From positions 211,342-275,341 of the forward strand of contig DAOULU010000012.1 in NCBI GenBank assembly GCA_034417075.1: DNA of 64,000 nucleotides, read 5' to 3'. Shown here one piece after another: positions 18,656-40,759 of the stretch. Positions within the stretch are counted from its first letter, which is position 1; each line of letters opens with the position of its first letter. The translations under genes and the position numbers were made by a program. The notes under the pieces are model-generated. The model made no database searches, was not told the DNA's origin, and saw nothing but the letters and a program-made list of their open reading frames with translations. This stretch comes from Anaerolineales bacterium. Lineage in GTDB: Bacteria > Chloroflexota > Anaerolineae > Anaerolineales > E44-bin32.

Positions 18656-19687
18656 TTAGGCGGCTGACTTTTTCGATTTCTCTTTGCCAGTATCCCCGGT
18701 GAAATTCGTGGGGACGATTCCATTCTTCTGTGCTTCGTCAAACGATATCAATGTGGGTGGCGTTTTTTCTTCCGTTTCGTCGGAAGATTTATCCTGGCTA
18801 TCTTCCTGCAGCATCTCTTCCAATTCATCGGAAATCGAATTTCGAAGTTGGGCTAGGATTTCCGATTGATCTTCGGAAATATCCAGGTCCATCATGATAT
18901 CGAGCAATTCTGCAATCGTCCGTTTCGCGCTGAACCATACCATCCCGATCGGTGTTTGGGCACGATCACGTTCAAACACGATGACCAGGAATAGATCCTT
19001 ACATAAGCTTGTGGAGAAAGTATTCCATTTCGAACCTTCGTTATACATTAGGTTAAAAACACAATCTTCCGACATATTGCGAGCCAGCTCGAAAAACGAA
19101 GCGTGTCCTGCGCCTATCAGTGCGGTGGTTATGGGGACATCGAATTCTTCAACGTATCCCGAATAAGTTATCGGTTTTCCCTCTGCGTTCGCCAGGATGA
19201 TGCAGTGTGCGGATATTTCTTGTCGAAGAGCATCCAACTTGAGGGTGATATTTTGTATTTTTTCCTTGATATCACACGCGATAGGCTCACGAGTTTCACT
19301 GCTCGTGCTGAGAACTTCTCGGGTGGCGTCGATCAAATCATCGATATCAATTGGCTTCGCCATGTAGCGGGCGACGTTGAGCTGTTTTGCTTTGGCCTTT
19401 ACGTCTTCGGAACCATATGCGGTCATGAGAATCATGCGGGTGTTGATCCCGTTGGAACGGATTTTTTCCATCAACTCGAGGCCGTCGACTTGCGGCATAC
19501 GTAGATCGGTGATCACCAGCTCATACACGATCTTCTGTATTTTATTCCAAGCAATGGAACCGTTATCGGCCGTGTCGACAACGTATCCCTCACCAAGGCC
19601 TTGAAGGGTATCAGCGATCGCGGTAGTAAACGTCAATTCGTCATCGACCACCAATACACGAGGAGGTTGTTCCTGGCGTTCACCCAT
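18656..19687 (-). CDS. response-regulator receiver domain fused to a Roadblock/LC7-like domain
   Basis: REC motifs VLVVDDE, ELVITDLRMPQVDG, MTAYG, AKP. The C-terminal half (CIILANAEGKPITYSG...LFLVIVFERD) resembles the Roadblock/LC7 (MglB-like) fold. ggagag RBS before the ATG. Confidence 0.8.
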   Translation of the reverse strand: MGERQEQPPRVLVVDDELTFTTAIADTLQGLGEGYVVDTADNGSIAWNKIQKIVYELVITDLRMPQVDGLELMEKIRSNGINTRMILMTAYGSEDVKAKAKQLNVARYMAKPIDIDDLIDATREVLSTSSETREPIACDIKEKIQNITLKLDALRQEISAHCIILANAEGKPITYSGYVEEFDVPITTALIGAGHASFFELARNMSEDCVFNLMYNEGSKWNTFSTSLCKDLFLVIVFERDRAQTPIGMVWFSAKRTIAELLDIMMDLDISEDQSEILAQLRNSISDELEEMLQEDSQDKSSDETEEKTPPTLISFDEAQKNGIVPTNFTGDTGKEKSKKSAA

Positions 19688-19846: not shown

Positions 19847-22800
19847 TTAAGCGTTGAGGATTTTCTGAATAGAGTTGGCAAGCGTTTTTTTATCGACAGG
19901 TTTTTGTACCCACGAAACGAGGTTGCTTTCGAGTAGCTCTCGGGTTCCTTCGTCCAACGGATAGCCGGTAATCAGTAGCATTTTAATCCCGGGTTGCTTT
20001 TCATTCAAAGTGCGGAAAAGTGTAGGTCCACTCAATCCCGGCATTATCACGTCACTCAGTACGAGGTCGACTTTTTCGCCTCCATTATCGAAATGGCGGA
20101 GGGCTTCTATCCCATCCGAGGCGGTGATTACGCGATAATTCAATGACTGCAGCACGCGGCTTAATGCATCGCGGACTTCAGATTCATCTTCGACCAGCAG
20201 AAGTGTCTCTAGATTTCCTTCCAGCGCATCGAAATCGTCGTCATCGAGAATGGTGGAAGCCTGTGTGTTCAACACGGGCAGGTAGATTGTGAAAGTCGTT
20301 CCCTTGCCCTTGCTGCTTTCAACGTCGATATATCCATCGTGCTGCTTTATGATGCCGTAGACTTGCGAAAGACCAAGCCCCGTACCCTGGCCTACGGGTT
20401 TGGTCGTAAAGAAGGGCTCGAAGATATGTGGTAGGACATCGGATGGAATGCCAAATCCGGTGTCGATAATCCGCAGACGCAACCAGGCCCCGGGTTTCAT
20501 GTCGCGATAGGGAGGTCTCTTGTTTGGATGTACAGTGAGTGTCGAAATATCAAAGGTCAACTGTCCGCCATCACTCATGGCATCTCTGGCGTTGATTGCC
20601 AGGTTGATCAGTACTTGTTGAAGTCGACCGGGGTCAGCACGAATCACGACCTGTTCTTCGCAAGGTTTATGTACGACGTGGATGTTTTCAGGAAGCATGC
20701 GATTGATGAGGGTGATGAAATCCTCGAAGAAGTCACGCAGGTTGACTTCAACGGGAGACATGACTCCTTTACGGCTGAAATCCAGAAATTGTTGTGTTAC
20801 AGAAGTGGCTCGTTGTGAAAGGCTGAGGATGGTCTTTACCCATTCCTGAGCTTCTGAACGTAGCGTGGGCTCTTCAAGCAGCATTTCACTATACAGCGTG
20901 ACTGGAACCAGGATGTTGTTGAAGTCGTGCGCGATTCCTGCAGCCATTTGACCCACCGCAGCAAGGCGTTCTTGCAGGTAGACTCGTCTTTGGGTTTCAC
21001 GTTCCTGGGTAACGTCTCGAATGACCAGAACCCATCCCTCAGATTGGACTCCGGTATCCAATGGGCGAGCGATAACTTCGTAAGATTGATTCTCTATTCC
21101 GATTTGTTGCCAAGGGTCCTGACTGGGAGCGTTGAAAATTTGCCGTATGGACACATCCCCGAGATGAGTCAGCGTATCGCCCAACTGGGCATTAGCCAAA
21201 GTCTTTAAATCATTCTTGCCCGCAGGATTGGCGAGTATAACATTTCCAGTCTGGTCGAGGAGTAACACACCCTCCGGTACGGTGTCGATTATTTGCTGAA
21301 CTTGACGCATTTGTTCTTGGATTCGTTCCAACAACCGGAGGCGTTGTGCAGTTGTACCCAATTGCTGGCCGACGGCTTCGGCTAGTGCGATCTCTTCGTC
21401 CGACCAGATACGTGGTACTTGGGCAGTGAGACTGATGCCACCGATGCGGCGATTTTCCTCCGCCACGATCTGTACGGTCAGCGAGGAACGCATGCCGTGT
21501 TCGATGAGAAGATCGGTGAAGGGTAACGGGGGATTCTCCGAATCGGTTGTGGCTTGCCAATCCTCAACAGCCAGTGTTCCAGGAATCTCCAACCCCTTGC
21601 TGGCTCGTATAGCTTCGGTGATACGATCTTTTATTTTGGAAGACATTCCCCGCGTCGCTACATATGGATGAATCCAGATACTTCCTACCTCCAGGCTTAG
21701 GGCATGAAGGGAGCGTTCTAAAGCAATTTCGAGAAGTTGGGGGAGGTCAGTCGCTGCATTTGCAGCGGCGATGATCGAGTTTAGCGCTTCAAAGTGTGTC
21801 GCACGGCGCGTTATTTCTTTTTCCGCTTTTTTACGCTTGTCGATGTCTCTGGAGATTCCCAACGTACCAGCTACGTTGCCATCTTTGTCGAGTAGAGGTA
21901 GTTTAGTCGTCGATACCCAAGCTTCACGACCGTCGGGCCAAATTTCCCGCTCTTCCTTGTCTGAAATTGTATCGCCGGTCTCGATCAATCGCTTCTCGTC
22001 CTCAAAAGCAACCTTTGCATGGTCCTCAGCAAAGAAATCGAAGTCCGTCTTTCCGATCGCCTGGTCTGGATCGGACAACTCGAATTTTTCTGCGAGTGCC
22101 GCGTTGATCTTGATGAACCGACTGTCTAGGTCTTTGAAGTAAATATAATTTGGGGAGTAGTCCATGAGAGATCGCAGGAGATGCTGTTCCCGAGATAGTG
22201 CTTCCTTTGTTTGATTTCTTTCCACGATCTCTTGCTGTAACTCTGTCGTTCTCTCTACGACTTGTTTTTCGATCGCAGCGTAGGCATTCCTGAGTGCATC
22301 TTCTTCTTTTTCCCGTTCCTGACGCAGCAGAGTCTTCTCGACGGCGCTGCTGATTTGCTCTTGTAGGATGTTGCACAATCGCCCTTCCGGGGGATCGACC
22401 TCGAACACGATTATCCCCAATTGCTTCTTTCCACGGAACAGCGTTTCGATGACAAATGAATATCGGCTTTTTCTTGAAGCGAGTTTTACATGGTTCAGAA
22501 GTTCGGTCGTGGGAAACGAATTTCGTTCCTTGAGTTTTGTACGTCCTTTTTCATCGAACGCCAAGATCATCTGCGAAACATCCATATTAACTCGCGGTTC
22601 GCCATCCGCCGGATCCCAGAACCGCTCGTATAGAGAAATGTAACAGCTTCTTATGCCTAATCGAGGCAATCCGAGATATAGGGCATTCGCCAATTCATTA
22701 AGATCGAAAGCAGTGTACAACGCATTGGTGATTTCAAGGAATTTCACGTACTGACGTTCGGTGATCGTCTTCTGATTAAGTCCGGCTTGTTGAAGTTTTT

Positions 22801-24103
22801 CGCTGATCAGCACACGGGCTTGTCCACAGATATCTTCCGCACGCACTAAGATCGACTCGTCGCTGTATTGCGTACGTGCATAGCGGCGCAGCGAGGACAC
22901 TGCGTTTTGCCAAATCCCGATTTCACCATCTCCTGCGATTGTGTCATTAATGAACTGTTCAAGGGTTTGTAGGAACTCTCCTGTCGAACCATTCCTGATC
23001 TCGGCGAGGAAAGTATTAAATAATGCTTCTACGCTTTCCTCCCCCAAATCTTCGATGGCAACATTTACGATGTTGACGAGCTCCAATACCGTCGTATTGG
23101 GTTGTGCGTTCGATTTACTCGAGAACTCCATCTCGGGATGATGCATCGTAGCTGCACGTTTTATTGCCGAGGATGAACACCCGCACGATTCGCGGATGAA
23201 GAGCGTAGTTGGAACGATCACGCGCTCGGGCACTTCCACGCCCTGCAGCATTTGAAGTGCCATGTTCACCGCTTTTCGGCACTGTTCTCGAAAAGGTTGA
23301 TGCACCGTCGTGAGAGGAGGAAGCGTGGCTTTGGTTGTAATTCGATCGTCGAAGCCCGCCACTGCGATGTCATTCGGGACGGATTGCCCATATTCTTTCA
23401 AGGTCCAAGTTACACCAAGCGCTATACTGTCGTTCGCGCCTACTACGGCTTCGAAGTGTTCATTGCGTTGATCGATGAACAAACGAATTGCATTTCCGCC
23501 TGTATATTCGTCCCATGCGCCTGGTGGTGAGATTAGATTGGGATTGATTTCAATCCCCGATTCTCGTAGGACGTCCTTATAAGCTTTAAACCTTTCTTCC
23601 GCACCAATCTGCGATTCCGGACCTCGAATGAAAGCGATGCGACGGAAACCATGATCTTGAACCAGATGAACGATGAGGTTGCGCATACCGAGGTAATCAT
23701 CGGTTGTCACGGTCGGTATTCCTGACACTTCATGACCAATGTTGATCATGGGTTTTGATTCGAACCTTCTACAGAATTCGATGAATGGTTCTTGTGAGAC
23801 GCAGTTGCTGATTGAAGCGTCCCATATTACCAGGGCGTCGATGATTGCGTCGTTCCCTATTGTGAAGATATCGCTGCCATCGGATCGATTTTCGCTCGAA
23901 TCACACAATTCAGCCCCTGCGATACAGATGAGGTTTGCGTTTTGTTCCTGAGCGGCTTTCGCGACAGCGCGCCACATCACCAAGCGATGCGGCTCAGCTA
24001 CGCATGACGTCAGGAAACCTATGGTTGGCCGTTTTCGAAATGCTTTCACCAAGTCATTCCCTAGTTTCTTAAGTTCCTTTATCTCCGCCGCTGACATCGC
24101 CAC
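19847..24103 (-). CDS. soluble hybrid sensor histidine kinase: LacI-type binding-protein-fold domain, GAF-like, PAS, GAF, PAS, HisKA, HATPase, REC
   Basis: 1418 aa with no TM or signal peptide. N-terminus resembles LacI/GalR ligand-binding cores (AVAGFDD...PPLTTVHQP...[10 protein letters not shown]). H-box [13 protein letters not shown]-box [19 protein letters not shown] / [13 protein letters not shown]. Confidence 0.9.
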
Positions 24104-24183
24104 TCCACATGAGTGGTCGTTTTGTCAGTTGTTAACGAATGACCGATGTCCCTTGGCAGGAGGACGTCTATCGTGGGGCTGCC

Positions 24184-27100
24184 TCATTCATTGTCTAGCG
24201 CATTACGAATCGCATCAGCCAAGAGATCCACGTCGTAAGGTTTGTGAATCACGGCGGCCACTCCAGCTTGCCGCAGATGATCCAGGTCCTCGGCGATGAT
24301 GTGGCCCGTAACCGCGACCGCCTTGATGGTAGACCCCAATTGACGCAATTCACGCAGTAATGCAGCTCCTCCGATCTCTGGCATAACGACGTCAGTAAAG
24401 AGCAGGTCGATATCACCGTTTGTTTTATAGACTTCCAATGCCTCCTTGCCGTTCGATGCAGATAGAACGTGGTACCCCAAGTCTTCCAGTATCTGCTGGC
24501 CGACTTCACGCATCTTTTCATTGTCCTCCACCAGTAGGATGGTTTCCCCGTTTCCCTGCGGGATGGATGAAAACACACCGTCCTGCGAAGACAGATGTTT
24601 TTCAGGTTTACACAGTGGTAGGTATACATGAAATGTCGTGCCCTTTCCCACCTCTGTATCCACATTGACTTGACCGTTATGCTGTTTCACGATTCCATAT
24701 ACTTGCGACAACCCCAGTCCGGTTCCCTTGCCGGTGTCTTTGGTCGTGAAGAAAGGTTCGAATATGTGCGGCAGCACTTCTGGTGGAATGCCGGTACCGG
24801 TGTCGGAAACGGAAATGCGGAGCCAGTTTCCCGGAACCATGCCCGCAGTCGGTGGATCTTCGTGTTCTTCGAGATGCAAACTGGACAACTTGATCCGCAG
24901 TGTCCCGCCCTTCGGCATTGCGTCGCGAGCGTTGACCACTAAATTCATAAGGACTTGCTGAATTCGAGTGGGGTCGGAATCGACGATGTACTCATCCGGA
25001 TCGATCTCCAGGGTAAGGGAGATATTTTCCGGGATCGTGCGCTTCAGAACTCGCACCGTTTCCTTTATGAACGGCCCAAGATCCACCAAACTCGTCTCGA
25101 TCGGCGATCGGCGACTGAAATCCAAGATTTGCTGCACCAGGTTGGCAGCATGCTTCGATTCTTTGAGGATCGTCTCGAGTGACTTTTTGATATCTTCGTT
25201 CACTTCATGTTTACGTAGCGGTCGTTGCGCGTAAAGCATGATCGTGGTTAACATGTTGTTGAAGTCGTGTGCAATCCCACCGGCCAACTGTCCAACCGCT
25301 GCGAGTCTTTCTTGCTGGTGGATGCGTTTTTGAGTCTCACGTTCTTTGGTCACATCTCGCAAGACCAGGACCCAACCCTTGGATTGCGTTCCTTTTTCTA
25401 ATTCCTTCGCGATGGCTTCAAAGAACCGCTCTTTGAATATAATCCGGCACCAAGGATTCTTCGGATCACGATCCAATACATCTGTAAGAGGGCGATTGCC
25501 GAGTTGTGAGAGGGTATCGCCAAATCCCATTTCAGCAAGAAGTTCGAGGTCCCGTTCTCCTGTCGGATTGGCAAGCAGGATCAATCCATCTTTATCGAGC
25601 AGGATAACTCCTTCGGGGACCGTGTCGATTATTTGCTGTACCTGGCGCATTTGTTCCTGAATCCGTTCCAACAGGCGCAGACGTTCTGTTGCAGTCCCTA
25701 ATTGTTGGCCGACGGCAATCACGAGATCGATTTCCTCTTTCGGCCACGAGCGTGGCTGCATGGCCGAGAGAATCAGCCCGCCGATGAAGATTCCATTCTC
25801 GGCCATGATGGGCGCAACGATTGAGGCGCCAACACCCTGCCGAGTCATGATCGAGGAAATCGGTGCGAGTGATTCGTTCTCGGATTCATGTGACCAATCA
25901 TCGATGGCGATCGGATTCGTGATCCGTGTTCCTTCGTGGGTCAGAATGTCGCGTGTGACGCTGTCGACAATGCCCTCCGGAATGCCGCGCGTGACGACGT
26001 TGGGTGGAATCCAGATACTTCCGATCTCCAAGTCGATGGCTCGGAGCGTATGGTCAAGGGCGGTTTCCAGTAATTGATCGAGATCCGCTTCTGTTGCAGC
26101 GGCGGATATGATCGTGTTCAACGCTTCTACCTGAACTGAACGGCGACGGATCTTCTCATCCGCTTCCCTTAGTTCCTGAAAAGCATTTGCTCCTTGGATT
26201 GCGGCGCTGATTTGGGTGGACAAAGTCTCGCACATTTCTGTATCGAGGTTATGCATCCCAAGAACCAAATACCCAAAGAGTTCGTCGCGGAAGTAGAGCG
26301 AATTGACCACGAGTTCATGTCTACGGTCGTTTAGTAGGAATCCTTCTGGAAATAGATTAACGGCCGGGAATGATTGTCTGACGTCATCGGCCGTGTCTAT
26401 TCTTCCTTCTATGTTGTAGGACAGCATTAGCCTGGCGTTTTTTCTGCTTTGATTTGGGCCATCAAAGAGGCATATAACACAACTATGAATTCCGATGCTT
26501 GGAAAATGATCCCAAATCGTTTCCATTAAGTTCGTCATGTCGTACGTGGTCAGCAATGCTTGGTTCGTATAACGTAATGGCTCAGCGATGTGCTCCTCTT
26601 GCAGTCTCAAATAGGAAGTGGATAGGGCTCCAATTTTACCCAGCAGTAAATTTGCTCGCCGCCAGAGCTCCGCCGTCCGTCTGGAGGATTCAATATCCTT
26701 GACGAGTGGCATAGTGAGCTGATTGAGAGTCGACATCGCATATTGCCACCGATATGCGTCGGTTCCATCAATCAAGCCGCGACGTAATATCTTCTCCAGC
26801 AATATTATGAATTCATCGGGATCGCTTTGATTGGTAAGCGCGTTGAAAAAGATGTCAACCAATTCCGATGTGTTTCTCGTGATCAAGTCTTCTTGTGAAT
26901 AAGACGGGTTATATGCTTCGACGACCTTTTGGACAACATAATCTCGCTGTGCGGTATGATCGTCAGACATCAGAAGCACTTTATCTTCTTGTAGAGAGCC
27001 TTCGGATTTCGGTTCCGGCTCACATGCACAACTCAGGCGCCGGACCAAAGTTGTTGGCATCAATTCACAATCCGGCACTTCTCCGCCTTCCAAAATCGTT

Positions 27101-27972
27101 ATGAGGAATTCCACAGCGCGCTTTCCGATCTCGTACATCGGTTGTCGTACCGTGGTTAGTGGTGGATTGGAAATATTGGCATCCATGACATCGTCATAAC
27201 CGATGATGGCGACGTCATCCGGAACATCAATACCACGAGTTTGAATGGCTTCCATGGCAGCCAGCGCCATGGTATCGTTTGCGCCAACCAACGCGTCGAA
27301 TTCTACCTTGCGCTCATCCAGAAGGACGCGTACCGCTTTCGTTCCCGAATCTCGGAAAAAATCTCCTTCAATGACCAGACTGGGGTCCAATGGAATGCCA
27401 TACTTCTCGAGTGTGTCGAGATAGGCCTGGTATCGCCGATGTGCTTCGGCACTTCCATCAGGACCACGAATGAAAGCGATTTTTCTCCGATTATGTTTCT
27501 GGATAAGATGGGCGATTGCATCTTGCATGCCTGTGAGGTCGTCGGCTAATATGCTGGGAACTCCTGCGACTTCTAATCCAATGCTGACAGTTGGAAGTGG
27601 AAGGTATCGACGGCAGAATGTGGTCAACTCTTCAAAGTTAACACATTGACCGATCACACCTGCTCCGATGATCAGACCATCAACTTGTTTCTCTGGAATT
27701 AATTCATAGATTTCGTTGCGTTGGTATTCGTAATTATCGAAATTCATCGTGGCATTCAAACAGCCACCGGTGTAACAAATCACACTCGCATCATGGTTGC
27801 GCGCAGCTTCGATGATTCCTCGCCATACTTCGAATTGGTATCCGCTCGTGCCGAGAATTCGATCGACCAGAAACGCAATTGTTGGGCGCGTGCTAAAATT
27901 TTGGGAATAGTGCGTGTACTTGCGATTTCCATTTGGTATAGGCATCGACACGCTTTCTACAGCAGGCTCCAC
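24184..27972 (-). CDS. soluble hybrid sensor histidine kinase paralog lacking the first PAS module
   Basis: 1262 aa with the same order of domains as its neighbours, but ~155 aa (coiled coil + PAS) are missing between the GAF-like module and the GAF domain. H-box [23 protein letters not shown] / [13 protein letters not shown]. Confidence 0.9.
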   Translation of the reverse strand: MEPAVESVSMPIPNGNRKYTHYSQNFSTRPTIAFLVDRILGTSGYQFEVWRGIIEAARNHDASVICYTGGCLNATMNFDNYEYQRNEIYELIPEKQVDGLIIGAGVIGQCVNFEELTTFCRRYLPLPTVSIGLEVAGVPSILADDLTGMQDAIAHLIQKHNRRKIAFIRGPDGSAEAHRRYQAYLDTLEKYGIPLDPSLVIEGDFFRDSGTKAVRVLLDERKVEFDALVGANDTMALAAMEAIQTRGIDVPDDVAIIGYDDVMDANISNPPLTTVRQPMYEIGKRAVEFLITILEGGEVPDCELMPTTLVRRLSCACEPEPKSEGSLQEDKVLLMSDDHTAQRDYVVQKVVEAYNPSYSQEDLITRNTSELVDIFFNALTNQSDPDEFIILLEKILRRGLIDGTDAYRWQYAMSTLNQLTMPLVKDIESSRRTAELWRRANLLLGKIGALSTSYLRLQEEHIAEPLRYTNQALLTTYDMTNLMETIWDHFPSIGIHSCVICLFDGPNQSRKNARLMLSYNIEGRIDTADDVRQSFPAVNLFPEGFLLNDRRHELVVNSLYFRDELFGYLVLGMHNLDTEMCETLSTQISAAIQGANAFQELREADEKIRRRSVQVEALNTIISAAATEADLDQLLETALDHTLRAIDLEIGSIWIPPNVVTRGIPEGIVDSVTRDILTHEGTRITNPIAIDDWSHESENESLAPISSIMTRQGVGASIVAPIMAENGIFIGGLILSAMQPRSWPKEEIDLVIAVGQQLGTATERLRLLERIQEQMRQVQQIIDTVPEGVILLDKDGLILLANPTGERDLELLAEMGFGDTLSQLGNRPLTDVLDRDPKNPWCRIIFKERFFEAIAKELEKGTQSKGWVLVLRDVTKERETQKRIHQQERLAAVGQLAGGIAHDFNNMLTTIMLYAQRPLRKHEVNEDIKKSLETILKESKHAANLVQQILDFSRRSPIETSLVDLGPFIKETVRVLKRTIPENISLTLEIDPDEYIVDSDPTRIQQVLMNLVVNARDAMPKGGTLRIKLSSLHLEEHEDPPTAGMVPGNWLRISVSDTGTGIPPEVLPHIFEPFFTTKDTGKGTGLGLSQVYGIVKQHNGQVNVDTEVGKGTTFHVYLPLCKPEKHLSSQDGVFSSIPQGNGETILLVEDNEKMREVGQQILEDLGYHVLSASNGKEALEVYKTNGDIDLLFTDVVMPEIGGAALLRELRQLGSTIKAVAVTGHIIAEDLDHLRQAGVAAVIHKPYDVDLLADAIRNALDNE

Positions 27973-28049
27973 TGGTCGTAATTGTTAGAGAAATCCTTTC
28001 GGTGATGTAGTCGCACGGAATGCGGACGGCCTATTTCTTGTTGCGATTA

Positions 28050-31000
28050 TCACTTACCGTCTAAGACCTTCCGAATTTCATCGGCCACTTCTTTCACTTC
28101 CAAAGGTTTGAATATGATCCCCGAAACGCCGTCATTTCGCAGTTCTTGAAGATCCTTGGCAAGCATATGTCCAGTTACTGCAATGGTTTTAACTGTGGAG
28201 CCCATATCACGCAGGGAGTGTAATAAAGCAACGCCGCCGACTTCCGGCATGACGACGTCGGTAAAAACGAGATCGAAATCTCCGTTCTGGCTGAAGAGAT
28301 CCAGAGCTTCACGACCATTTTTTGCAGCCACAACCTCATAGCCCAAGTCACGTAGCATTTCTTCGCTCACCTCTCGTACGTGTTGGCTGTCCTCGACGAG
28401 GAGGATGCGTTCGCCTGTGCCTTTGGGGATATCGATGTTGTCGGTGGGTAAAATTTCGAATTTTTCGGCTGACTGATGGATCGGAAGATAGACGAGGAAT
28501 TCAGTGCCTTCACCGACCGTGGAATCCACTTTAATGAAACCCTCGTGCTGTTTGACGATGCCCCAAACCTGAGACAAGCCCAATCCCGTTCCCTTGCCGG
28601 CGGCTTTCGTGGTGAAGAAAGGCTCGAAAATATGCGGCAAGATATCCTCGGGTATACCTGTTCCTGTGTCTTTAACGGACAGGCAGAACCACTTTCCTGG
28701 TGTTATGCCAGGAACTGGAACATCATCATCGCTATCTTCTTCATGAACGATCACGCTTGACACGCCGACTCGCAATACTCCACCTTCTGACATAGCGTCT
28801 CGCGCATTCACAACCAGGTTCATCAGGACCTGTTGAATGCGAGTCGGATCTGATTCGACGAGGTACTCATCTGGGTCGATCTCGATGTACAACGAGATGT
28901 TCTCGGGAATAGTTCGTTGTAGTACACGCACGGCTTCTTTCACGAACGGTCCAAGATCGATGGGATGTCGTTCGATCGGTGCGTGTCGGCTGAAATCGAG
29001 GATCTGTTGAACCAAATCTGCTGCCTTACGAGACTCGCTGAGGATCGTCTCGAGGGGTTTTTTCAGATCATTCGGCAGCTGTTGTTTGCGTAAGGGCATT
29101 TGAGCATAAAGCATGATTGTCGTAAGGAGGTTGTTGAAGTCGTGGGCTATTCCACCAGCGAGCTGGCCGACAGCTGCCAGGCGTTCCTGTTGTTGCACTT
29201 GGCGCTGTGTTTCACGTTCATGGGTCACATCTCGAATCACAACGACCCAATTTTTTGATGCACCAGGGGTATTGATGGGTTGTGCGATGATTTCAAAAAT
29301 TCGGTTGCTGGCATTGACCTCATGCCAGGGGACATCCGATTCTTCTTGAAGGATTTTAGAAATGGGATAACCACCGAGGTGGGAAATTTCAGTGCCGACG
29401 GATGTTTTCGCCAGTACATGTAAGTCTCGTGTCCCCGCGGGATTGGCTAGGATCACACGATTGTTCGAGTCAAGTAGTAGCACACCGTCTGGTACGGTGT
29501 CTGTGATTTGCTGCACTTGCTTCATTTGTTCATGGATCTGTTCCATAAGTCTAAGCCGTTCGGCTGCTATTCCTACTTGATAGCCAACCGCTTGCAAGAG
29601 AGTGGTTTCTTCTGTGGTCCACTCAAATGCATTGGGAGAAGCGATACATAGACCTCCGATGCGATTTCCTCCCTCGGTTTTTATCGGAACGGTGATCGAA
29701 GTCCGAACGTCATGTGGTTTGAGAATGGCCTCAAAGAAGCCATAACGCGGGTCTTCTTCCGCTACTTCTTGCCAATCATTGACAATGACGATTTCCGGCA
29801 GATTATTACTTTCAGGATCGTAATGGTAGTGTGGTGATTCATTCTCCGATGGTAACAATTCTCGGAAAACCGCGTGTGGATGGATCCAAATAAGACCCAT
29901 ATCCAAATCAAGTGCGTGGAGGGATAAATCCAAAGCAATTTTCAATAACTCTTGGAAATCGACTGCAGTTGAAGTCAAGCTGATAATCGTGTTGATCGCT
30001 TCTAGGTGGGCGGCGTGGCGTCGAAGTTCTTGCTCCGCTCGCTTGGATTCAGTAATGTCTCTGGAAATACCGAATGTGCCGGTGATTTTTCCCTTCTCAT
30101 CTCGTATAGGTAATTTGGTTGTCGAGACCCACGTTTCGTGTCCGTCCGGCCAGGTCTCTTTTTCTTCTTTCCCGATAATCGGTTCTCCAGTATCGAGCAA
30201 ACGCACTTCGTCTTTAAAAGCTTCCTGTGCATGTTCCTCGGTGTACAAATCAAATACGGTTAATCCCAGCATTTCGTCGGGAGATTCTTTCCCGTGTATC
30301 TTGGCACACACTGGATTGACCTTAATAAACCTACCCTCTTGGTCTTTAAAGTAGATGACATCCGTCGTTTGATCCATTAACAAGTGTAATAAGTATTGTT
30401 CCCGAGTTAATGCTTGTTGGGCCTGCTCACGGTCTACGATCTCGAATTCTAGCTCGATGGCTTTTTCGATAACCTGTTCCTCAGCTTCCGTGTAGGCTTG
30501 CTGCAGCAGTTCATGCTCTTGTTGTCGCGCTCGGAGTAGTAATGCGTAGTTGAGGGAACTGCTTATTTGTTCTTGCAGCATGTCACAGGCTCTTCCATCC
30601 GGTGGATATATTTCGAAAAGTACTACTCCGAGAGGTTCATCAGCGCTTTCGAGGGCTTTAACCACAAAAGAACTTATCTTCTTTCGGGAACCAATTTCTT
30701 TACGAGGAAGGATAGTCGCTGAAGGAGCAATCGCATCAGTTTCCAGCGCCAATCGACCGTTCTCATCGAACGCCAGTATCATCCTTAATAAACTTGGTTC
30801 CGTCTGCAAATCGTCTTCCTGCAGTGCATATGCACCTTCGTAGAGGGACAGATAGCAACTCCGAATTCCGAAACGAGGTAGATTTCGATGGAGGATCTCG
30901 AGTAAATCATCGAGTTCGTGCGCTGTCGACAAAGCTCTGGTAGTCTCACGCATATTCGCGTATTGTCGATCGTAGATCAACGATTGACGCGTTTCGATCT

Positions 31001-32315
31001 GTTGGACCGTCTCACCGATCAACACACGAGATTGATGGACGAGTTCCTCAATTCGTTCCGTTGTTGTTTTATCTTTAAATTGCAGGAGTGAAAAATGACG
31101 AAGTAAAGAAACCACTTTTTGCCATTCGTTGATTTCAGTCTCTACCGATACCGTCTCTTCGAAACATTGAGCGAGGTCCTTTAGGAAATTGCCGGAACCA
31201 TTATTTTCGATATCCGTAATGAAAGATTCGAATAGCCGCTTGCTCCAGTTTGTGATCGATCCTTCGACCGTAGAGTCAACGATTTGTGCGATCGCTTTAA
31301 TTCCATCTTCGGGATTCGTATTTGATGTATCGGACTCGACAGGATCGATAATCGTTTTTGTGATCGCACGTCCAACGGCAGATGATGTACAGCCGCATGA
31401 TTGACGGATGCATAGTTCTGTGGGGATATTGACGAGATCTGGGACAACGCCACCCTGCAATTTGGTTAGTACGATGTTAACTGCATGTCTGCACTGCTCT
31501 TTTAAATGTTGGCGGACTGTGGATAATGGTGGAGTAGCAGCTTTTGCAATTGCTTGGCCATCAAATCCAGCTATGGCTACATCACCAGGGACTTCTAGTC
31601 CCCGGTTTCTCAATGCCCACATCGCAGCGAGGGCAATCGAGTCGTTTACACTTACAATCGCGTCAAAATCTACATTTCGCTCATCGACGAATAGTCGTAC
31701 GGCATCTTCGCCTGTAGCTGCATCCCAACTACCTGGCTGCGAGAGTAGATCTAGGTCTAGTTGGATGTTGGATTCTGAAAGCGCATCTTTATATGCCTGG
31801 AATCTCGTTTCTGCTCCGATCTGTCCTTCAGGTCCCCGGATGAAAGCGATACGTCGATAGCCATGATCTACGATTAGATGACGTACCAAATTGTGCATGC
31901 CGACGTAGTTGTCGGAAAGGACCGTCGGGATGCCATCGACCTGCTGGCCGATGCTGACAATCGGTTTGGATATGAACTGGTGGCAAAATTCACGAAACGT
32001 GTTCTGTGGGACAGAAGTTCCAAGTCTTGCTCCATAGATTATGATGGCGTCGATGACATCTTCGCTCGCAGCTCGAAATAAGGAACCGATTGGATTGGTG
32101 TTCCCATGCGATTCATCGATTAAATCGACCGCGATCGTCACAACATTGGCGTTTCGCTCATGCGCAGCTTCAACAACCGCAGTCCACATGGCCAAACCGA
32201 AATGGTCTTCCATTGCGGCAGTGAGGAAGGCAATGGTAGGCAGCGAGATTGAAGATTGGTTTTTGTCGCCATTGTTAGCTGGACGGTCTTGTTTCATATT
32301 TGGTGCCACTAACAT
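28050..32315 (-). CDS. soluble hybrid sensor histidine kinase paralog: LacI-type domain, GAF-like, PAS, GAF, PAS, HisKA, HATPase, REC
   Basis: 1421 aa, co-linear with 19847..24103. H-box [23 protein letters not shown] / [13 protein letters not shown]. Confidence 0.9.
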
Positions 32316-34471: not shown

Positions 34472-34963
34472 CTAATTTTCGCCAAACAGACTCTCAATTT
34501 CCGTGGTCAATGCTTGCCCAAATTCATCATCGACAATGCGTCCCTGTTCCTTTTGTACGCGTTCGAACTCCGCAGCAAGCGGGAGCAAGTTCTTCACGGC
34601 TTGGCCTGTGAAAAGGCGTACAAGACCGATCTGGACTTTTGTGCTGAATAAGACGACGAGCAAAAAACTACCGGCAACGTTCGAAAGATAGATATTCTGA
34701 TCGTCCCCTTCGTGGAACATGAGTTTGAAGGGATTTTCCTCACCGATCTGGCGGGCAATCTCTGCCGTGGCAGCCATGTTGCTGGCGGTTAAAGCAGAAA
34801 GGATCACTGGATCAAAGGTCTTCGTAAACCCTTGTTGGCAGATCAGCTGTCCGCTGATGTCTGCCAATAAGACGCAGCAGGCTTGGGTTTTCTCCAGCAA
34901 TTGCGATAAGATCTTGATGATCTTCGTCATCAGAGCTGGGGGTATGACTACTTTATCTGACAT
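34472..34963 (-). CDS. Roadblock/LC7 (MglB-like) domain protein
   Basis: ATG 34963 is preceded by a gggagg RBS. ACCVLLADISGQLICQQG...FLLVVLFSTKVQIGLV fits the Roadblock pattern. The longer ORF to 35086 is unlikely. Confidence 0.8.
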   Translation of the reverse strand: MSDKVVIPPALMTKIIKILSQLLEKTQACCVLLADISGQLICQQGFTKTFDPVILSALTASNMAATAEIARQIGEENPFKLMFHEGDDQNIYLSNVAGSFLLVVLFSTKVQIGLVRLFTGQAVKNLLPLAAEFERVQKEQGRIVDDEFGQALTTEIESLFGEN

Positions 34964-35144
34964 TGGGTACCTCCCGAGATTGGTTGGCGTTGACTTTCGA
35001 GTTCGAAGCTCTGCAGGTTTCGTTGGAAGTCCCGCCGAATTTCCGATGGAGCGACAGAATTTGGATGTGTCCAAAGGTCGTCCCATCGTCTAGTTTGTGA
35101 CGGGTATAGTTTAAATTCCCAGGAAACATGCTCGTAACACATGG

Positions 35145-36012: not shown

Positions 36013-36801
36013 TTAAATACTTCGCAACAAATCTAGCATGATCTGTTGAAAACGCATGCGTTGATCTGAGTCCTCAATTTCCGTGCTCACCTGTTCCACC
36101 AGGTCAGCAACTTTGTTTCGCGGAAAGGATTCTCTGGTTTCATTCAAGTCGGCGATTTTTTCATCAATTATCACCGGCCCCATTGGGCCGATCACTTCAA
36201 TGAATTCGTCATTAAGTCGATCGAAAAACTCGTTGTCGATGGCAGTTATGGGCAACGACTTCGATTCTTCGACGATCTCTAGCAGTCCCGTCTTTACAAG
36301 CCCGGCAAGGACGTTTGCGGCTTTAAAGTCTTCCCATCCCAAGGATTCGGCGATGTCGTCGATTGTGCGTACTCCGTTTACCTGCGCCAAGACCTTCCAT
36401 TCGTCCGGTTCCAAGTTGATCGCCCCCGTCGTTCCTTGGGCAAGGTTGAAAACCGCCTCCATCGATGGAATGACGTCCTTAATTTCGGACCATCCCTTGA
36501 TTCGTTTTTCCCCTTCACTGAGGAGCACCTCTGTTGACGTCGAAATGGACTCCTCTGGTGGTTCAATACCGCTCACGAAATTGAAGTTCCCATGCAGCCA
36601 TGATAGTAGGAAATAGAAAGCTTCTTCTCCCATTTGTGTCCCGGTGATGACATGAACGATGTTGCCATTCCGTAAGAAAATCTCACCGGTATTGCTCCCA
36701 TCCGATAAATCAAGTTTTCCCGTTTGACGCCCTGATTTTAATAATTGAATGATATTCGGGAGTGACAATTGGTTTAGATCACCCCGTAGAGCTTCTGCCA
36801 T
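36013..36801 (-). CDS. PATAN (DUF4388) domain protein
   Basis: N-terminus LRGDLNQLSLPNIIQLLKSGRQTGKLDLSDGSNTGEIFLRNGNIVHVITGTQMGEEAFYFLLSWLHGNFNF is the DUF4388/PATAN signature. ATG 36801 overlaps the upstream stop (TGATG). Confidence 0.8.
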   Translation of the reverse strand: MAEALRGDLNQLSLPNIIQLLKSGRQTGKLDLSDGSNTGEIFLRNGNIVHVITGTQMGEEAFYFLLSWLHGNFNFVSGIEPPEESISTSTEVLLSEGEKRIKGWSEIKDVIPSMEAVFNLAQGTTGAINLEPDEWKVLAQVNGVRTIDDIAESLGWEDFKAANVLAGLVKTGLLEIVEESKSLPITAIDNEFFDRLNDEFIEVIGPMGPVIIDEKIADLNETRESFPRNKVADLVEQVSTEIEDSDQRMRFQQIMLDLLRSI

Positions 36802-37238
36802 CACACGACTCCCTCATTAATGGTTATGTACAAACGCCAGGATATTTCATCGACATCGTCTTCCTGCACGATCCGGATGACCTGTTCTTTTGGTGCAATA
36901 TTGCCTAGTTGTGTTTCGAATTCCGGTCCGGATAAGTTTACATTCAATGTCAGTCGAAGAAGGGCGATGTCCACATTTGATTTGCAGATTACGACGAGCA
37001 AAGCCTGGTTGAGGTCGCGAATCAACACCCGGATTCCTTCATACGTCAGATCAAGTTCTTGAATCCCGTTCTGTATCCTGGCAGCGATTGCTTGCGTCAC
37101 TTGACGGCTGATTCCACGCAAAACCGCGATATTCAGGTTCCCGGGAACAGCGTTCACGATCACGTTGCCGTGATTGTCACAGATGAACGATCCGAGTACA
37201 CCGTCCAGTGCGTTGATTTCAGCGAGTACTTGGTCCAT
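36801..37238 (-). CDS. Roadblock/LC7 (MglB-like) domain protein
   Basis: 145 aa with LDGVLGSFICDNHGNVIVNAV...ALLVVICKSNVDIALLRL, the Roadblock pattern. Begins 9 nt after the upstream gene. Confidence 0.8.
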   Translation of the reverse strand: MDQVLAEINALDGVLGSFICDNHGNVIVNAVPGNLNIAVLRGISRQVTQAIAARIQNGIQELDLTYEGIRVLIRDLNQALLVVICKSNVDIALLRLTLNVNLSGPEFETQLGNIAPKEQVIRIVQEDDVDEISWRLYITINEGVV

Positions 37239-37247
37239 GTTGATCTC

Positions 37248-38258
37248 TTAGTCGGCCGTGAAACCAAGGATGAATGGACCTAAGCCCAGGCGCTTGATTG
37301 TGTCGTCGTATTTATCCTTTACCGCCTTCATTTCGGTCTGGATTCTATGTTCCAGATCCGCGGCTGCCGGTTGGGAGGCCAGCTGCTCGATTGTCGTGCT
37401 CAGGCAGTCGCTGAGACCTTTACTCAAATTCTTGGCATCGCCGCTGTATTGGATTATGCCGTCCTTGTATTGGAACAAACCGGCGAAGGGATCCAGAAAT
37501 GGATATTCGTTGGCCTTCTCGATCATGACGTATTTGAATGTCTCGAGGAACTGGCCTGCGCCGATTGTAGAGTCCGACATTTTCTCGATCGTACCAATCG
37601 TCTCACCCCACACGGCAAGCAAGCGTGGGAGATCGAAACCAGCTTCGATCTCTTCGCTCTCGGCAAACGAAGCTTCAATGGCCGCGTTGTAAACGTTGAA
37701 GTCCGCTCCCAAAGCTGAAGCATTCTCGACGATGTGAGGCAGAATCGCATCTCCGGATATCGCCTCATCCTGCATCGAGAGGATGCTCTCGACGACTTCA
37801 CCGTTTTCGAGGAAGACAATCGCGACGCCATCACCGCCTGTCATCCTAACCTCGATGTAGCCGGTGTGCCCCTCATTCTTCAGTTTCGAGATGAGTTTTT
37901 CGAGGCTGGTGAAGTCTGTGTTGAGATCCTTGTAGCGTACCTCGCTTCTCACGGTACTGGCGAGCATGGTTACCTTCTTTGGTGAGAGGCCATACACGCT
38001 GATGGAACCGTCTTTTTGGTTGACTTTTGTCGTAATGCTGCCGACGGCATCGTGGCTGGTCTTTCGTTTCCCGCTCACCTCTTCGATGGCATTGATGATG
38101 TTCCCATTGTCCATGAAAAGTGCGGCTTCGTAATCCCAAAAACTGATGTGAACGTATCCGGTGAAGCTGTTGGACTTGAGATCCAGCAATAATTTACCGA
38201 AACTTGTAAAAGAGGTATTCAGATTCTCGTAGATTGGTTTTCCCTTTGGTAATAACAT
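37248..38258 (-). CDS. hypothetical protein with two divergent PATAN/DUF4388-like repeats and a helical C-terminal region
   Basis: Repeats FGKLLLDLKSNSFTGYVHISFWDYEAALFMDNGNIINAIEE and LEKLISKLKNEGHTGYIEVRMTGGDGVAIVFLENGEVVESI. ATG 38258 has an aggag RBS. Domain call is tentative. Confidence 0.6.
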   Translation of the reverse strand: MLLPKGKPIYENLNTSFTSFGKLLLDLKSNSFTGYVHISFWDYEAALFMDNGNIINAIEEVSGKRKTSHDAVGSITTKVNQKDGSISVYGLSPKKVTMLASTVRSEVRYKDLNTDFTSLEKLISKLKNEGHTGYIEVRMTGGDGVAIVFLENGEVVESILSMQDEAISGDAILPHIVENASALGADFNVYNAAIEASFAESEEIEAGFDLPRLLAVWGETIGTIEKMSDSTIGAGQFLETFKYVMIEKANEYPFLDPFAGLFQYKDGIIQYSGDAKNLSKGLSDCLSTTIEQLASQPAAADLEHRIQTEMKAVKDKYDDTIKRLGLGPFILGFTAD

Positions 38259-38351
38259 TGTGTTTCTCCTATGAGAGCTAATCTTTGTCGAAACGGTTGC
38301 CTTCATTCGACGATTGCTCGAATAGTAGCATCCGGATTTTTCCTCAACGCA

Positions 38352-39062
38352 TCAATCTTTATCCTTTCGATGCCTTCTCTTCGTGACTTGTATTGAATTG
38401 GCTGTGGCACTTACTGGGATTTTTGGATCCATGGACAAAACCGTAAGCTGTTTTTCGGACGGAAAGACGATCATTCTCCAACCCTCGCCGGACATGGTGA
38501 TTTGCTGAAGCGCTCCGGCGTTTAAAAGGATACCTAATTCTTCTGCGCGTCTCCCGGTAAAAGCAGTGAGAGCCGCCGTCGCTTTGGGATCCTTCGTTGA
38601 CTCGAAACCTATGATGTCACCGTATTTCGATGCAACGAGTGCACTTTCGATGCCATTGATGCGTGTGAAATCTTTTACCATCCGTACAGCAGCTTCATGT
38701 TCGGCTTTCTTTTTTTCCCGATCGGCATCTTCATCGTCACTGCTTTTCATCAGGGTCTGCTCGTCGATGCGTCGCAGCCCTTCCAACAGCAAATGGGACC
38801 AGTTGGTATCTACGCTGCGTTTCGGCGCGCGTATGTCTTTCGTTAATTCGAACGTCCCATCTTCCCAGGTTAGAAGTTCGAAGATCACGTCTTCTCCTTC
38901 TTGCGAACCCAGCGTCATGTGGACGATGTCCCCCTCATCGAAAAACAAGGTTCCCTCTTGATCCCGATGTTTCACAAGGAGACGTGCTTGATTCATCTCA
39001 TTGCAATTAATGCTGATCAGACTGGATAGACTGATGTCAATTAAATTCCCCTGAACTGCCAT
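38352..39062 (-). CDS. PATAN (DUF4388) domain fused to a Roadblock/LC7-like domain
   Basis: N-terminus QGNLIDISLSSLISINCNEMNQARLLVKHRDQEGTLFFDEGDIVHMTLGSQEGEDVIFELLTWEDGTFEL (PATAN). C-terminus INGIESALVASKYGDIIGFES...WRMIVFPSEKQLTVLSM (Roadblock-like). ATG 39062 avoids overlap with the GTPase gene. Confidence 0.75.
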   Translation of the reverse strand: MAVQGNLIDISLSSLISINCNEMNQARLLVKHRDQEGTLFFDEGDIVHMTLGSQEGEDVIFELLTWEDGTFELTKDIRAPKRSVDTNWSHLLLEGLRRIDEQTLMKSSDDEDADREKKKAEHEAAVRMVKDFTRINGIESALVASKYGDIIGFESTKDPKATAALTAFTGRRAEELGILLNAGALQQITMSGEGWRMIVFPSEKQLTVLSMDPKIPVSATANSIQVTKRRHRKDKD

Positions 39063-39088
39063 AAGCGATTGCCTTTGTTTCCTATGAT

Positions 39089-39661
39089 TTAAAGTTGTCG
39101 GACCACGAGATTTATGATGGCTTTCAAAGTATCGAATACGCCATGTCCCTTGATCGCGGACGAGCCCATACAAGGGACGCCATTGACATTCATCTGCGTC
39201 TTTAAATCATCGGGTTTGATCACGTCGGGAAGGTCCTGCTTGTTGAATTGAATAACGCAGGGAAATGAATCGATCGGCGTCCCTAGCTGCATCAAGTAGT
39301 TTTCGAGCGCTTTGAGATCATTGACGTTATCGGTTAGACGATCACGCTGCGAATCGGCAACGAATACGACTCCATCGGATCCTTGAAGGACGAGTTTTCG
39401 GCTTGCTTCGTAATACACCTGCCCGGGTACGGTATACAGACTGAATTTTGGTTTCAGACCATTGATACTCCCGAGTTCTAATTGCATGAAATCGAAGAAT
39501 ATCGTTCGATCTTCACGCGTTTTCAAAGAAACCAATTCCCCGCGCGATTTGGGGTTGATGTGTCCGTGGATGAATTGTAGGTTTGTCGTTTTTCCACTGC
39601 GAGCAGGGCCATAATATACAATCTTGATATGTAGCTCGCCCAGCTTCTGGTTTATGTACAT
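39089..39661 (-). CDS. mglA: MglA-family Ras-like small GTPase
   Basis: 190 aa, co-linear with Myxococcus/Thermus MglA as I recall them: KIVYYGPARSGKTTNLQ (P-loop), EDRTIFFDF (intrinsic Arg), LYTVPGQVYY (switch II with Thr in place of Asp), NKQD (G4). ggagga RBS. Confidence 0.92.
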   Translation of the reverse strand: MYINQKLGELHIKIVYYGPARSGKTTNLQFIHGHINPKSRGELVSLKTREDRTIFFDFMQLELGSINGLKPKFSLYTVPGQVYYEASRKLVLQGSDGVVFVADSQRDRLTDNVNDLKALENYLMQLGTPIDSFPCVIQFNKQDLPDVIKPDDLKTQMNVNGVPCMGSSAIKGHGVFDTLKAIINLVVRQL

Positions 39662-39757: not shown

Positions 39758-40759
39758 CTATTTCGCCTTTTTAGTTTCTTTCAACTCAGATGGAACAAGC
39801 CCGGCATTCATTGCGTCTTCAAAGTTGATTAATTCTCCTGTACCGATATCCAGCAGGATCTCGTCGTCTAGCAATTGATCGAGTTCGGCATTCATTGCTT
39901 CCGCCAGGTTGTCGGAATCGATCTCCGCATCCTTCTGATCGGCGATCAGTGGAGCCAGTTCGGCGGCCGTTTGTTTGGTGTAATGCCATACCGCACCGGG
40001 TTTGGTTTCCGAACCGAAGATTACCGCTAAAAGGAAGTCTCCATCCACATCGTGCGCATAGATGTTGTATTCCGGCCCTTCATGGAAACTGGATTTAAAA
40101 ACCGAATCGCTTTTCAGGATTCTGGCCAATTCGGATGAAGCTGCGAAATTCGCAGCTACAAGTGCACTGATGTTTGATGTATCCATTCCGCTCGTCACAC
40201 CCGCTGTTTCAACCATATATCCATTGGCACTCAACAGTAATACGCATGAGGCTCCGGAGTCGGCCTGTAATTTATTCAATTTTTCACGCAGCGGTTCGCC
40301 AAGATCTCGCATCTCGGGCTGTTCATCGCTATTCATCGAGCCGATTGCTTTTTCAACGATCTCTCGAATCTGCGTCATGCTGAAGGGTTTATCGATAAAG
40401 CCTTCGAGATTCAATTCCTCGACGGATGAACGCAACTCCTTATTTCCATACGCCGTAATAAGGACTACTTTCGTATCCGGGGAGATTTCACGAACGGCTT
40501 TTGCTAAATCCAAGCCGTTCATGGTCGGCATCATATAGTCGGTTATGATCAGTTCGTAGGAACCGCTTTTAACCTTTTCAAGGGCAGCCGCGCCGCTATT
40601 TGCCGTATCGACAGTATACTCATCGCAAAGTTTGCTCAAGTAATTTGTCAAGGCTTTCAAGATTTCATGCTCATCGTCTACGATGAGCAAATGCCTGGTA
40701 TCTGCATCTTGAGTCGTCAAGTCGATTCTCCCAATACGCTTACCTTCCTGGATTGCCAA
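39758..40759 (-). CDS. response-regulator receiver domain fused to a Roadblock/LC7-like domain
   Basis: REC motifs LLIVDDEHE, ELIITDYMMPTMNG, ITAYG, DKP. C-terminal half ASCVLLLSANGYMVETAG...DFLLAVIFGSETKPGAV is Roadblock-like. TTG start at 40759, or TTG 40720 with a gggaga RBS. Confidence 0.8.
   Translation of the reverse strand: MAIQEGKRIGRIDLTTQDADTRHLLIVDDEHEILKALTNYLSKLCDEYTVDTANSGAAALEKVKSGSYELIITDYMMPTMNGLDLAKAVREISPDTKVVLITAYGNKELRSSVEELNLEGFIDKPFSMTQIREIVEKAIGSMNSDEQPEMRDLGEPLREKLNKLQADSGASCVLLLSANGYMVETAGVTSGMDTSNISALVAANFAASSELARILKSDSVFKSSFHEGPEYNIYAHDVDGDFLLAVIFGSETKPGAVWHYTKQTAAELAPLIADQKDAEIDSDNLAEAMNAELDQLLDDEILLDIGTGELINFEDAMNAGLVPSELKETKKAK

Follow-up and report, generated by a model that had tools for sequence, protein, structure and literature searches.

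The MglA/MglB pair is the best-understood polarity GTPase switch in bacteria, MglB being a Roadblock protein that is both the GAP and the exchange factor of MglA. To our knowledge, a route by which external signals reach this switch is known only for Myxococcus (Frz, RomR, and MglC). Two peptide contacts have been described in that organism. [quoted passage not shown] Proteins in which a receiver is fused to a Roadblock domain (Response_reg-Robl_LC7) were recorded by Wuichet and Sogaard-Andersen (2014; PMC4316618), together with the fact that some members are missed by the Pfam Robl_LC7 model; the passages of that survey on which we draw make no mention of the tail or its motifs.

Here we describe two such proteins, RR-Rbl1 and RR-Rbl2, from a family of the class Anaerolineae in which a receiver is joined straight to an MglB-like domain, a helix of the MglA-binding type appears to have been kept, and a second, family-specific peptide has been added. 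We judge it likely, at a probability of roughly 0.6, that each paralog is composed of a receiver, an MglB-type Roadblock domain, and a tail with two independent motifs (A and B), and that motif B is a docking peptide to the polarity module. Motif B is a new, family-specific feature in a known but uncharacterized architecture.

A minus-strand cluster with two receiver-Roadblock genes

The two genes are the first (RR-Rbl1) and last (RR-Rbl2) members of a gene cluster on the minus strand of a 64,000-nucleotide stretch of DNA (the window) from an Anaerolineales bacterium. The order of the cluster is RR-Rbl1, an MglA-like GTPase, a PATAN-Roadblock protein (positions 38352..39173), DUF2226/PATAN and PATAN proteins (positions 37248..38306 and 36013..36804), a TM-HAMP protein, a stand-alone Roadblock protein, a DDE transposase, a lone receiver, three hybrid histidine kinases, and RR-Rbl2. 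RR-Rbl1 (positions 39758..40759, minus strand; 333 amino acids) lies directly upstream of the gene for the MglA-like small GTPase (positions 39089..39661, minus strand; Pfam Arf/Ras), at a distance of 96 nucleotides. RR-Rbl2 (positions 18656..19687, minus strand; 343 amino acids) is located some 20 kb away. As an earlier annotation made from the letters of the DNA (the sequence-only reading) had stated, it closes the cluster directly downstream of the kinase array: it follows the last of the three tandem kinase genes (positions 19847..32315, minus strand), whose products are possible phospho-donors, by 159 nucleotides and converges on plus-strand genes. Both open reading frames are intact. The TTG start of RR-Rbl1 (40720..40759) is probably too far upstream, with the true start about 12 codons downstream, and close homologs of the protein (P0121 and others, 318-323 amino acids) start about 12 residues later.

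Both RR-Rbl genes are thus coupled in the window to a gene for an MglA-family GTPase. The layout in which Rbl1 and MglA are separated by about 20 kb from Rbl2 is seen again in two related genomes (G780 and G783), in each case on one contig, and the kinase array upstream of Rbl2 orthologs is kept in four loci (L061-L064); coupling to MglA is not universal across the wider REC-Roadblock family. The distribution of the cluster is patchy, its closest relatives being found in MAGs labeled Anaerolineales (L061-L064), and the order to which the window belongs was sampled with 15 genomes, none of which had motif B or an MglA ortholog. In many genomes a gene for an OmpR/PhoB-type response regulator, often with a histidine kinase, is located directly upstream of the Rbl2-type gene (L033 12923-13855, L036 7950-8819, L038 8184-9005, L043 12359-13171, L046 6767-7759, and L052 5768-6589); this regulator gene is absent from the window.

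The two proteins are 30% identical over 321 residues (E 9e-50), with their tail peptides in register. Pfam recognized a receiver (REC, PF00072) in both, at E 2.5e-26 in RR-Rbl1 and at E 4e-25 in RR-Rbl2, where the domain extends over residues 10-127 (positions 19307..19660, minus strand) and is modeled by AF2 with a pLDDT of about 90. Robl_LC7 was matched only in RR-Rbl1 (E 2.2e-7), and RR-Rbl2 gave no Pfam match to that model. M. xanthus MglB was nevertheless matched by both proteins in phmmer searches (RR-Rbl1, E 3.5e-14; RR-Rbl2, E 5.4e-6, 6izw_B), and a Foldseek search with the AF2 model of RR-Rbl2 placed M. xanthus MglB structures (6hjm/6izw) at the top, with a TM score of 0.80 and an E value of 1.7e-10. 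The second domain of RR-Rbl2, as delimited by phmmer and Foldseek (residues 137-265; positions 18893..19279, minus strand), is an MglB-like Roadblock domain despite the Pfam miss. RR-Rbl2 therefore has the same architecture as the fusions recorded in the passages of PMC4316618 and, like some of them, escapes Pfam Robl_LC7. These results bear out the assignment, in the sequence-only reading, of both proteins as REC plus Roadblock-like with acidic, disordered tails.

The phospho-acceptor set of RR-Rbl2 (D15, D16, D61, T89, and K111) is intact; D15, D16, D61, and K111 show no variation in the family alignment, and the quintet DDDTK is present in 42 of 47 locus homologs with motif B. Each paralog would accordingly combine a phosphorylatable receiver, an MglB-type Roadblock domain, and a tail that is acidic and disordered. 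In RR-Rbl2 the acidic tail is followed by a basic C-terminal tip, KEKSKKSAA (positions 18659..18685, minus strand), which is kept as K(K/S)KKAA in the ortholog clade.

A conserved peptide in a hypervariable tail

Motif B, the tail peptide to which the sequence-only reading had drawn attention, reads LISFDEAQKNGIVPTNF in RR-Rbl2 (residues 313-329; positions 18701..18751, minus strand) and LINFEDAMNAGLVPSEL in RR-Rbl1 (residues 310-326; positions 39782..39832, minus strand); both peptides had been quoted exactly. Its consensus is [LP]-[MLI]-[STN]-[FLI]-[ED]-[EQ]-A-[VIM]-x-A-G-[LI]-[VIL]-[PD]-x-[ED]-[LIF], in which the positions of A319 and G323 are at least 90% conserved in a 120-sequence alignment. 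Among 149 homologs pooled from two protein searches, 123 carry the motif, each scoring above every shuffled control, and in two more it is cut by the C-terminus. Within the Rbl2 ortholog clade, identity amounts to 74% in motif B, as compared with 37% in the preceding linker and 51% at the C-terminus, and in the family alignment more than 100 indel columns separate motif B from motif A. Motif B is a conserved island within a hypervariable, disordered, fast-evolving tail. Its conservation in orthologs, on which the sequence-only reading had staked its case, holds, and extends to homologs of only about 22-30% identity.

Might the resemblance between the two tails be a by-product, arising by chance or from the composition of acidic tails? 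The pattern does have the look of a generic capped-helix signature that is also seen in unrelated proteins. However, the motif amounts to about 38 bits of information; no shuffled control exceeded 7 bits, whereas the two tails of the window reach 37 and 44, and the motif has been retained in both paralog lineages despite an identity of only 30% between them. Also, when a weight matrix trained only on RR-Rbl1 homologs no more than 57% identical to RR-Rbl1 was run over the 32,682 six-frame ORFs of the genome, the two tails ranked first and second (31.3 and 22.3 bits), followed by an ORF at 14.1 bits. The shuffled controls, the leave-out test, and the tree of Roadblock domains described below rule out a chance or compositional origin, and we regard the by-product explanation as exceedingly improbable. 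Judged from these comparisons of sequences, motif B is a real and previously undescribed motif of the docking type.

How widely is the motif distributed? We searched 401 genomes of the class and 401 further genomes of the phylum (802 Chloroflexota) with a 22-column profile of motif B. The class scan gave matches in 37 of 401 genomes, of which 31 were verified in REC-Roadblock ORFs; five weak matches (E 0.003-0.01; G053, G132:C12, G158, G206, and G363) were left out of the verification. One exception, internal to a PBP1-like protein, was shared by three genomes of a single genus (L015, L017, and L018), and the sole additional match in the phylum scan was located inside a crotonase (L135). Regular-expression and profile scans of the window's own genome found motif B, among the matches examined, only in REC-Roadblock ORFs. 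Among the examined matches, then, and apart from the internal ones in the PBP1-like protein and the crotonase, motif B is restricted to REC-Roadblock ORFs of the class Anaerolineae, and it would represent a module added only to the REC-fused Roadblock proteins of that class.

The tail is composed of two separable motifs, of which B can be duplicated and may precede or follow A. Motif A comes first in 84 proteins and motif B in at least eight, and two copies of motif B are present in L005, L008, L010, L019, and L030. Tails with motif A only and tail-less REC-Rbl variants also exist, and whole clades are tail-less or have a HATPase-like domain. In the tree of Roadblock domains, both REC-Rbl lineages include members with motif B, and the stand-alone clade has none; motif B is therefore probably as old as the REC-Roadblock fusion and has been lost repeatedly, which would place its presence before the split of the two paralog lineages. 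No neighboring gene separates B-bearing from A-only loci, MglA, stand-alone Roadblock, and PATAN-Roadblock genes being found beside both.

We note in this context a REC-Roadblock clade of the Ardenticatenaceae and Promineifilaceae in which a C-terminal domain of about 170 amino acids, ending like GHKL/HATPase_c, replaces the B-bearing tail (L105 8038-9429, L112 9467-10918, L121 8170-9630, and L122 365-1810). These genes still adjoin MglA, stand-alone Roadblock, and PATAN-Roadblock genes.

Motif A and the C-terminal helix of MglB

A second island of conservation in the family alignment (ELDxLF) is located upstream of motif B in both tails of the window. This island, motif A, has the consensus D-F-G-x-x-L-x-x-E-L-D-x-L-F and reads ISDELEEMLQ in RR-Rbl2 (residues 285-294; positions 18806..18835, minus strand), where it is predicted to form an acidic amphipathic helix, and MNAELDQLLDD in RR-Rbl1 (residues 289-299; positions 39863..39895, minus strand). 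HMMER extends the alignment of RR-Rbl2 with MglB to the C-terminus of MglB, such that ...NSISDELEEMLQEDS pairs with ...EMSDDDIDNLFSEGS; the tail segment aligned to the MglB helix is ...NSISDELEEMLQED and its MxMglB counterpart ...MSDDDIDNLFSE. Motif A aligns in this way, in a segment that is of low complexity, with about residues 147-159 of MxMglB.

The same motif ends all 28 of the stand-alone MglB-like neighbors that were inspected (21 by regular expression and seven by eye), and motif B was found in none of the 28 stand-alone Roadblock proteins and in none of 128 other cluster proteins. The stand-alone MglB-like Roadblock protein of the window (positions 34472..35086, minus strand) likewise has motif A, DDEFGQALTTEIESLFGEN, at its end (positions 34475..34531) and is without motif B. 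Given the HMMER pairing and the fact that motif A ends every stand-alone Roadblock protein, none of which has motif B, the analogy to MglB belongs to motif A. In terms of sequence, then, it is motif A and not motif B that is the counterpart of the MglB C-terminal helix. Accordingly, of the view put forward in the sequence-only reading, a conserved linear motif of the docking type in a disordered tail stands, but the connection of that peptide to the MglB helix does not, and a mis-assignment that is easily made is corrected.

In the mechanism that we propose, motif A would be a homolog of the helix by which MglB of Myxococcus occupies an allosteric pocket on MglA, with the MglA-like GTPase as its candidate partner. 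The comparison with MglB (M. xanthus and Thermus thermophilus; 6IZW, PMC6785124) can be drawn as follows. RR-Rbl2 and MglB have the same Roadblock fold (TM 0.80), the RR-Rbl proteins are, like MglB, encoded in an MglA cluster, and in each a disordered linker leads to an acidic amphipathic helix, which in RR-Rbl is motif A. Unlike MglB, the RR-Rbl proteins have a fused N-terminal receiver, and their tail continues past the MglB-type helix into motif B. The separation of the two motifs would allow clean constructs deleted for A or for B, with which it could be asked which contact regulates the GTPase and which localizes or gates the regulator.

One subfamily (L006, L025, and L030; P0090 and P0119) has a tryptophan-containing variant of motif A, L-[DN]-x-F-W-[ED], which in L030 is repeated jointly with motif B as a tandem unit. 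The variant recalls RomR, whose binding to MglC also depends on a tryptophan (W394).

Candidate partners of motif B

AF2 monomer models of RR-Rbl2, full-length and deleted for REC with the same alignment, were compared by their confidence values. The full-length model has confident REC and Roadblock domains, and the linkers on either side of motif B are below a pLDDT of 50. Motif B itself, with a helix at residues 316-321, reaches 78-79 in the full-length model and 82-84 without REC, as compared with 39-48 and 54-60, respectively, for the helix that includes motif A (residues 272-294). Since removal of REC brought no fall in its values, the confidence of motif B is independent of REC, and docking of motif B on REC in cis is not supported.

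The sequence pattern of motif B, interpreted by the established rules of helix capping, suggests a hydrophobic staple with an S/T/N-x-x-E capping box, a two-turn helix, a glycine Schellman cap, and a hydrophobic-hydrophobic-Pro turn. Motif B would on this interpretation be a pre-structured peptide that presents Phe4, Val8, Leu12, Val13, and Leu17. Such a capped helix would explain both the high local pLDDT and a weak resemblance to plakin and crotonase elements: the helix of the plakin (plectin) repeat and a crotonase helix with ...S-A-E-E-A-x-x-x-G-L-V... have the same N-cap, two-turn helix, glycine cap, and hydrophobic pair, although these elements sit inside folded domains and the matches are non-significant, making the likeness a structural analogy only. 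A profile search of PDB sequences with motif B gave nothing significant, the best match being a desmoplakin plakin repeat at E 0.17; the match covers 15 residues of a repeat of 38, and motif B is not a plakin repeat on this evidence. Because the same pattern is found internal to unrelated folds, part of the conservation of motif B may reflect helix capping and not the interface with a partner.

These models bear on the idea that motif B acts as a latch within the molecule, closing on the Roadblock domain of the same protein (or on REC), switched by phosphorylation of the receiver and gating an MglB-like activity. In favor of a latch, motif B occurs only where REC is fused, B-bearing proteins retain an intact receiver active site, and the pLDDT of about 80 for motif B in the monomer models exceeds the 39-60 of the free helix A. 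Yet docking on REC is not indicated by the deletion model, and the high pLDDT may merely be that of a capped helix, so that we consider the latch doubtful. The restriction to REC fusions would also fit a docking site for the phospho-donor, whether the hybrid kinases or another two-component partner, as would the position of Rbl2 directly after the kinase array and the conservation of kinases and the OmpR-type regulator as upstream neighbors. The types of kinase vary between loci, however, several B-bearing loci have no kinase within 10 kb, and we know of no docking peptide of this kind for receiver domains; a phospho-donor is, in our estimation, a very unlikely partner.

A further candidate, proposed in the sequence-only reading by analogy with the MglB helix, is the GTPase, on which motif B would make a second contact beside the MglB-type C-terminal helix. 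Orthologs of MglA were found in 52 of the 401 class genomes (46-66% identity in the 51 other than the window's). In raw counts, which are confounded by relatedness, 19 of the 31 verified B-bearing genomes have such an ortholog, as against 33 of the 370 others (about 9%). The genes of B-bearing proteins are commonly found near MglA, which among the fetched loci was no more than 10 kb away in 7 of 20 and in about 22 of 47, and five genomes with tail-less REC-Rbl proteins also lack MglA orthologs. On the other hand, it is motif A with which the MglA-contacting helix of MglB aligns, the stand-alone MglB-like proteins that adjoin MglA never have motif B (0 of 28), and at least 12 verified B-bearing genomes, seven of them at least 90% complete, are without an MglA ortholog at E<=1e-30. 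The best GTPase match in three of these genomes that were examined is a CvnD-like protein, 25-29% identical and encoded beside a PATAN-wHTH gene. These findings weaken the case for the GTPase: it is unlikely, as judged from the genomes, that MglA is an obligate partner of motif B, and docking on the MglA-like GTPase as a second contact also seems to us unlikely, although MglA might be one of several partners.

We return to the reading that we prefer, in which motif B would tether a REC-MglB-like regulator under phosphorylation control to some other part of the polarity module, probably not MglA itself. Our leading guess is a surface of a Roadblock or PATAN scaffold, either the protein's own dimer or another Roadblock or PATAN domain of the cluster, which contains five further Roadblock domains and four PATAN domains besides the protein's own. 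Of the 31 verified B-bearing genomes, 29 have PATAN, and the two without it are only 63% and 69% complete; among the 370 others the figure is 171. These counts are likewise raw, confounded by relatedness, and set against a class in which half of the genomes have PATAN. A precedent is RomR of M. xanthus, which resembles the RR-Rbl proteins in its receiver, its long, disordered, acidic or proline-rich linker, its short, helical docking element at the C-terminus, and its membership in the MglA polarity module. RomR itself lacks a Roadblock domain, and the parallel between its C-terminal helix and motif B would be one of functional analogy.

Docking of motif B on a Roadblock or PATAN surface might, moreover, be gated by phosphorylation. 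We put forward as a possible, and decidedly tentative, extension of the preferred reading that phosphorylation of the receiver sets whether motif B holds this MglB/RomR hybrid on the Roadblock-PATAN scaffold or frees motif A and the Roadblock face for the GTPase. If so, a two-component signal would feed straight into a Ras-like polarity switch, and filamentous Chloroflexota would have, in one protein, an equivalent of the Frz-RomR-MglC-MglB relay of Myxococcus.

Finally, we note two features of the gene neighborhoods. PATAN is present in 200 of the 401 class genomes, and a gene pair for PATAN-wHTH and a CvnD-like GTPase is widespread (L055-L057) and persists without MglA; in the genome of the window a copy lies on a different contig (G000:C6:276063-276533). 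Several related clusters contain a stand-alone MglB-like protein of 280-357 amino acids with an N-terminal TPR-like extension (L033 8015-8851 and L046 9429-10490; also L097, L110, and L117-L120), and a TPR domain would be a plausible peptide-binding partner for the tail motifs.
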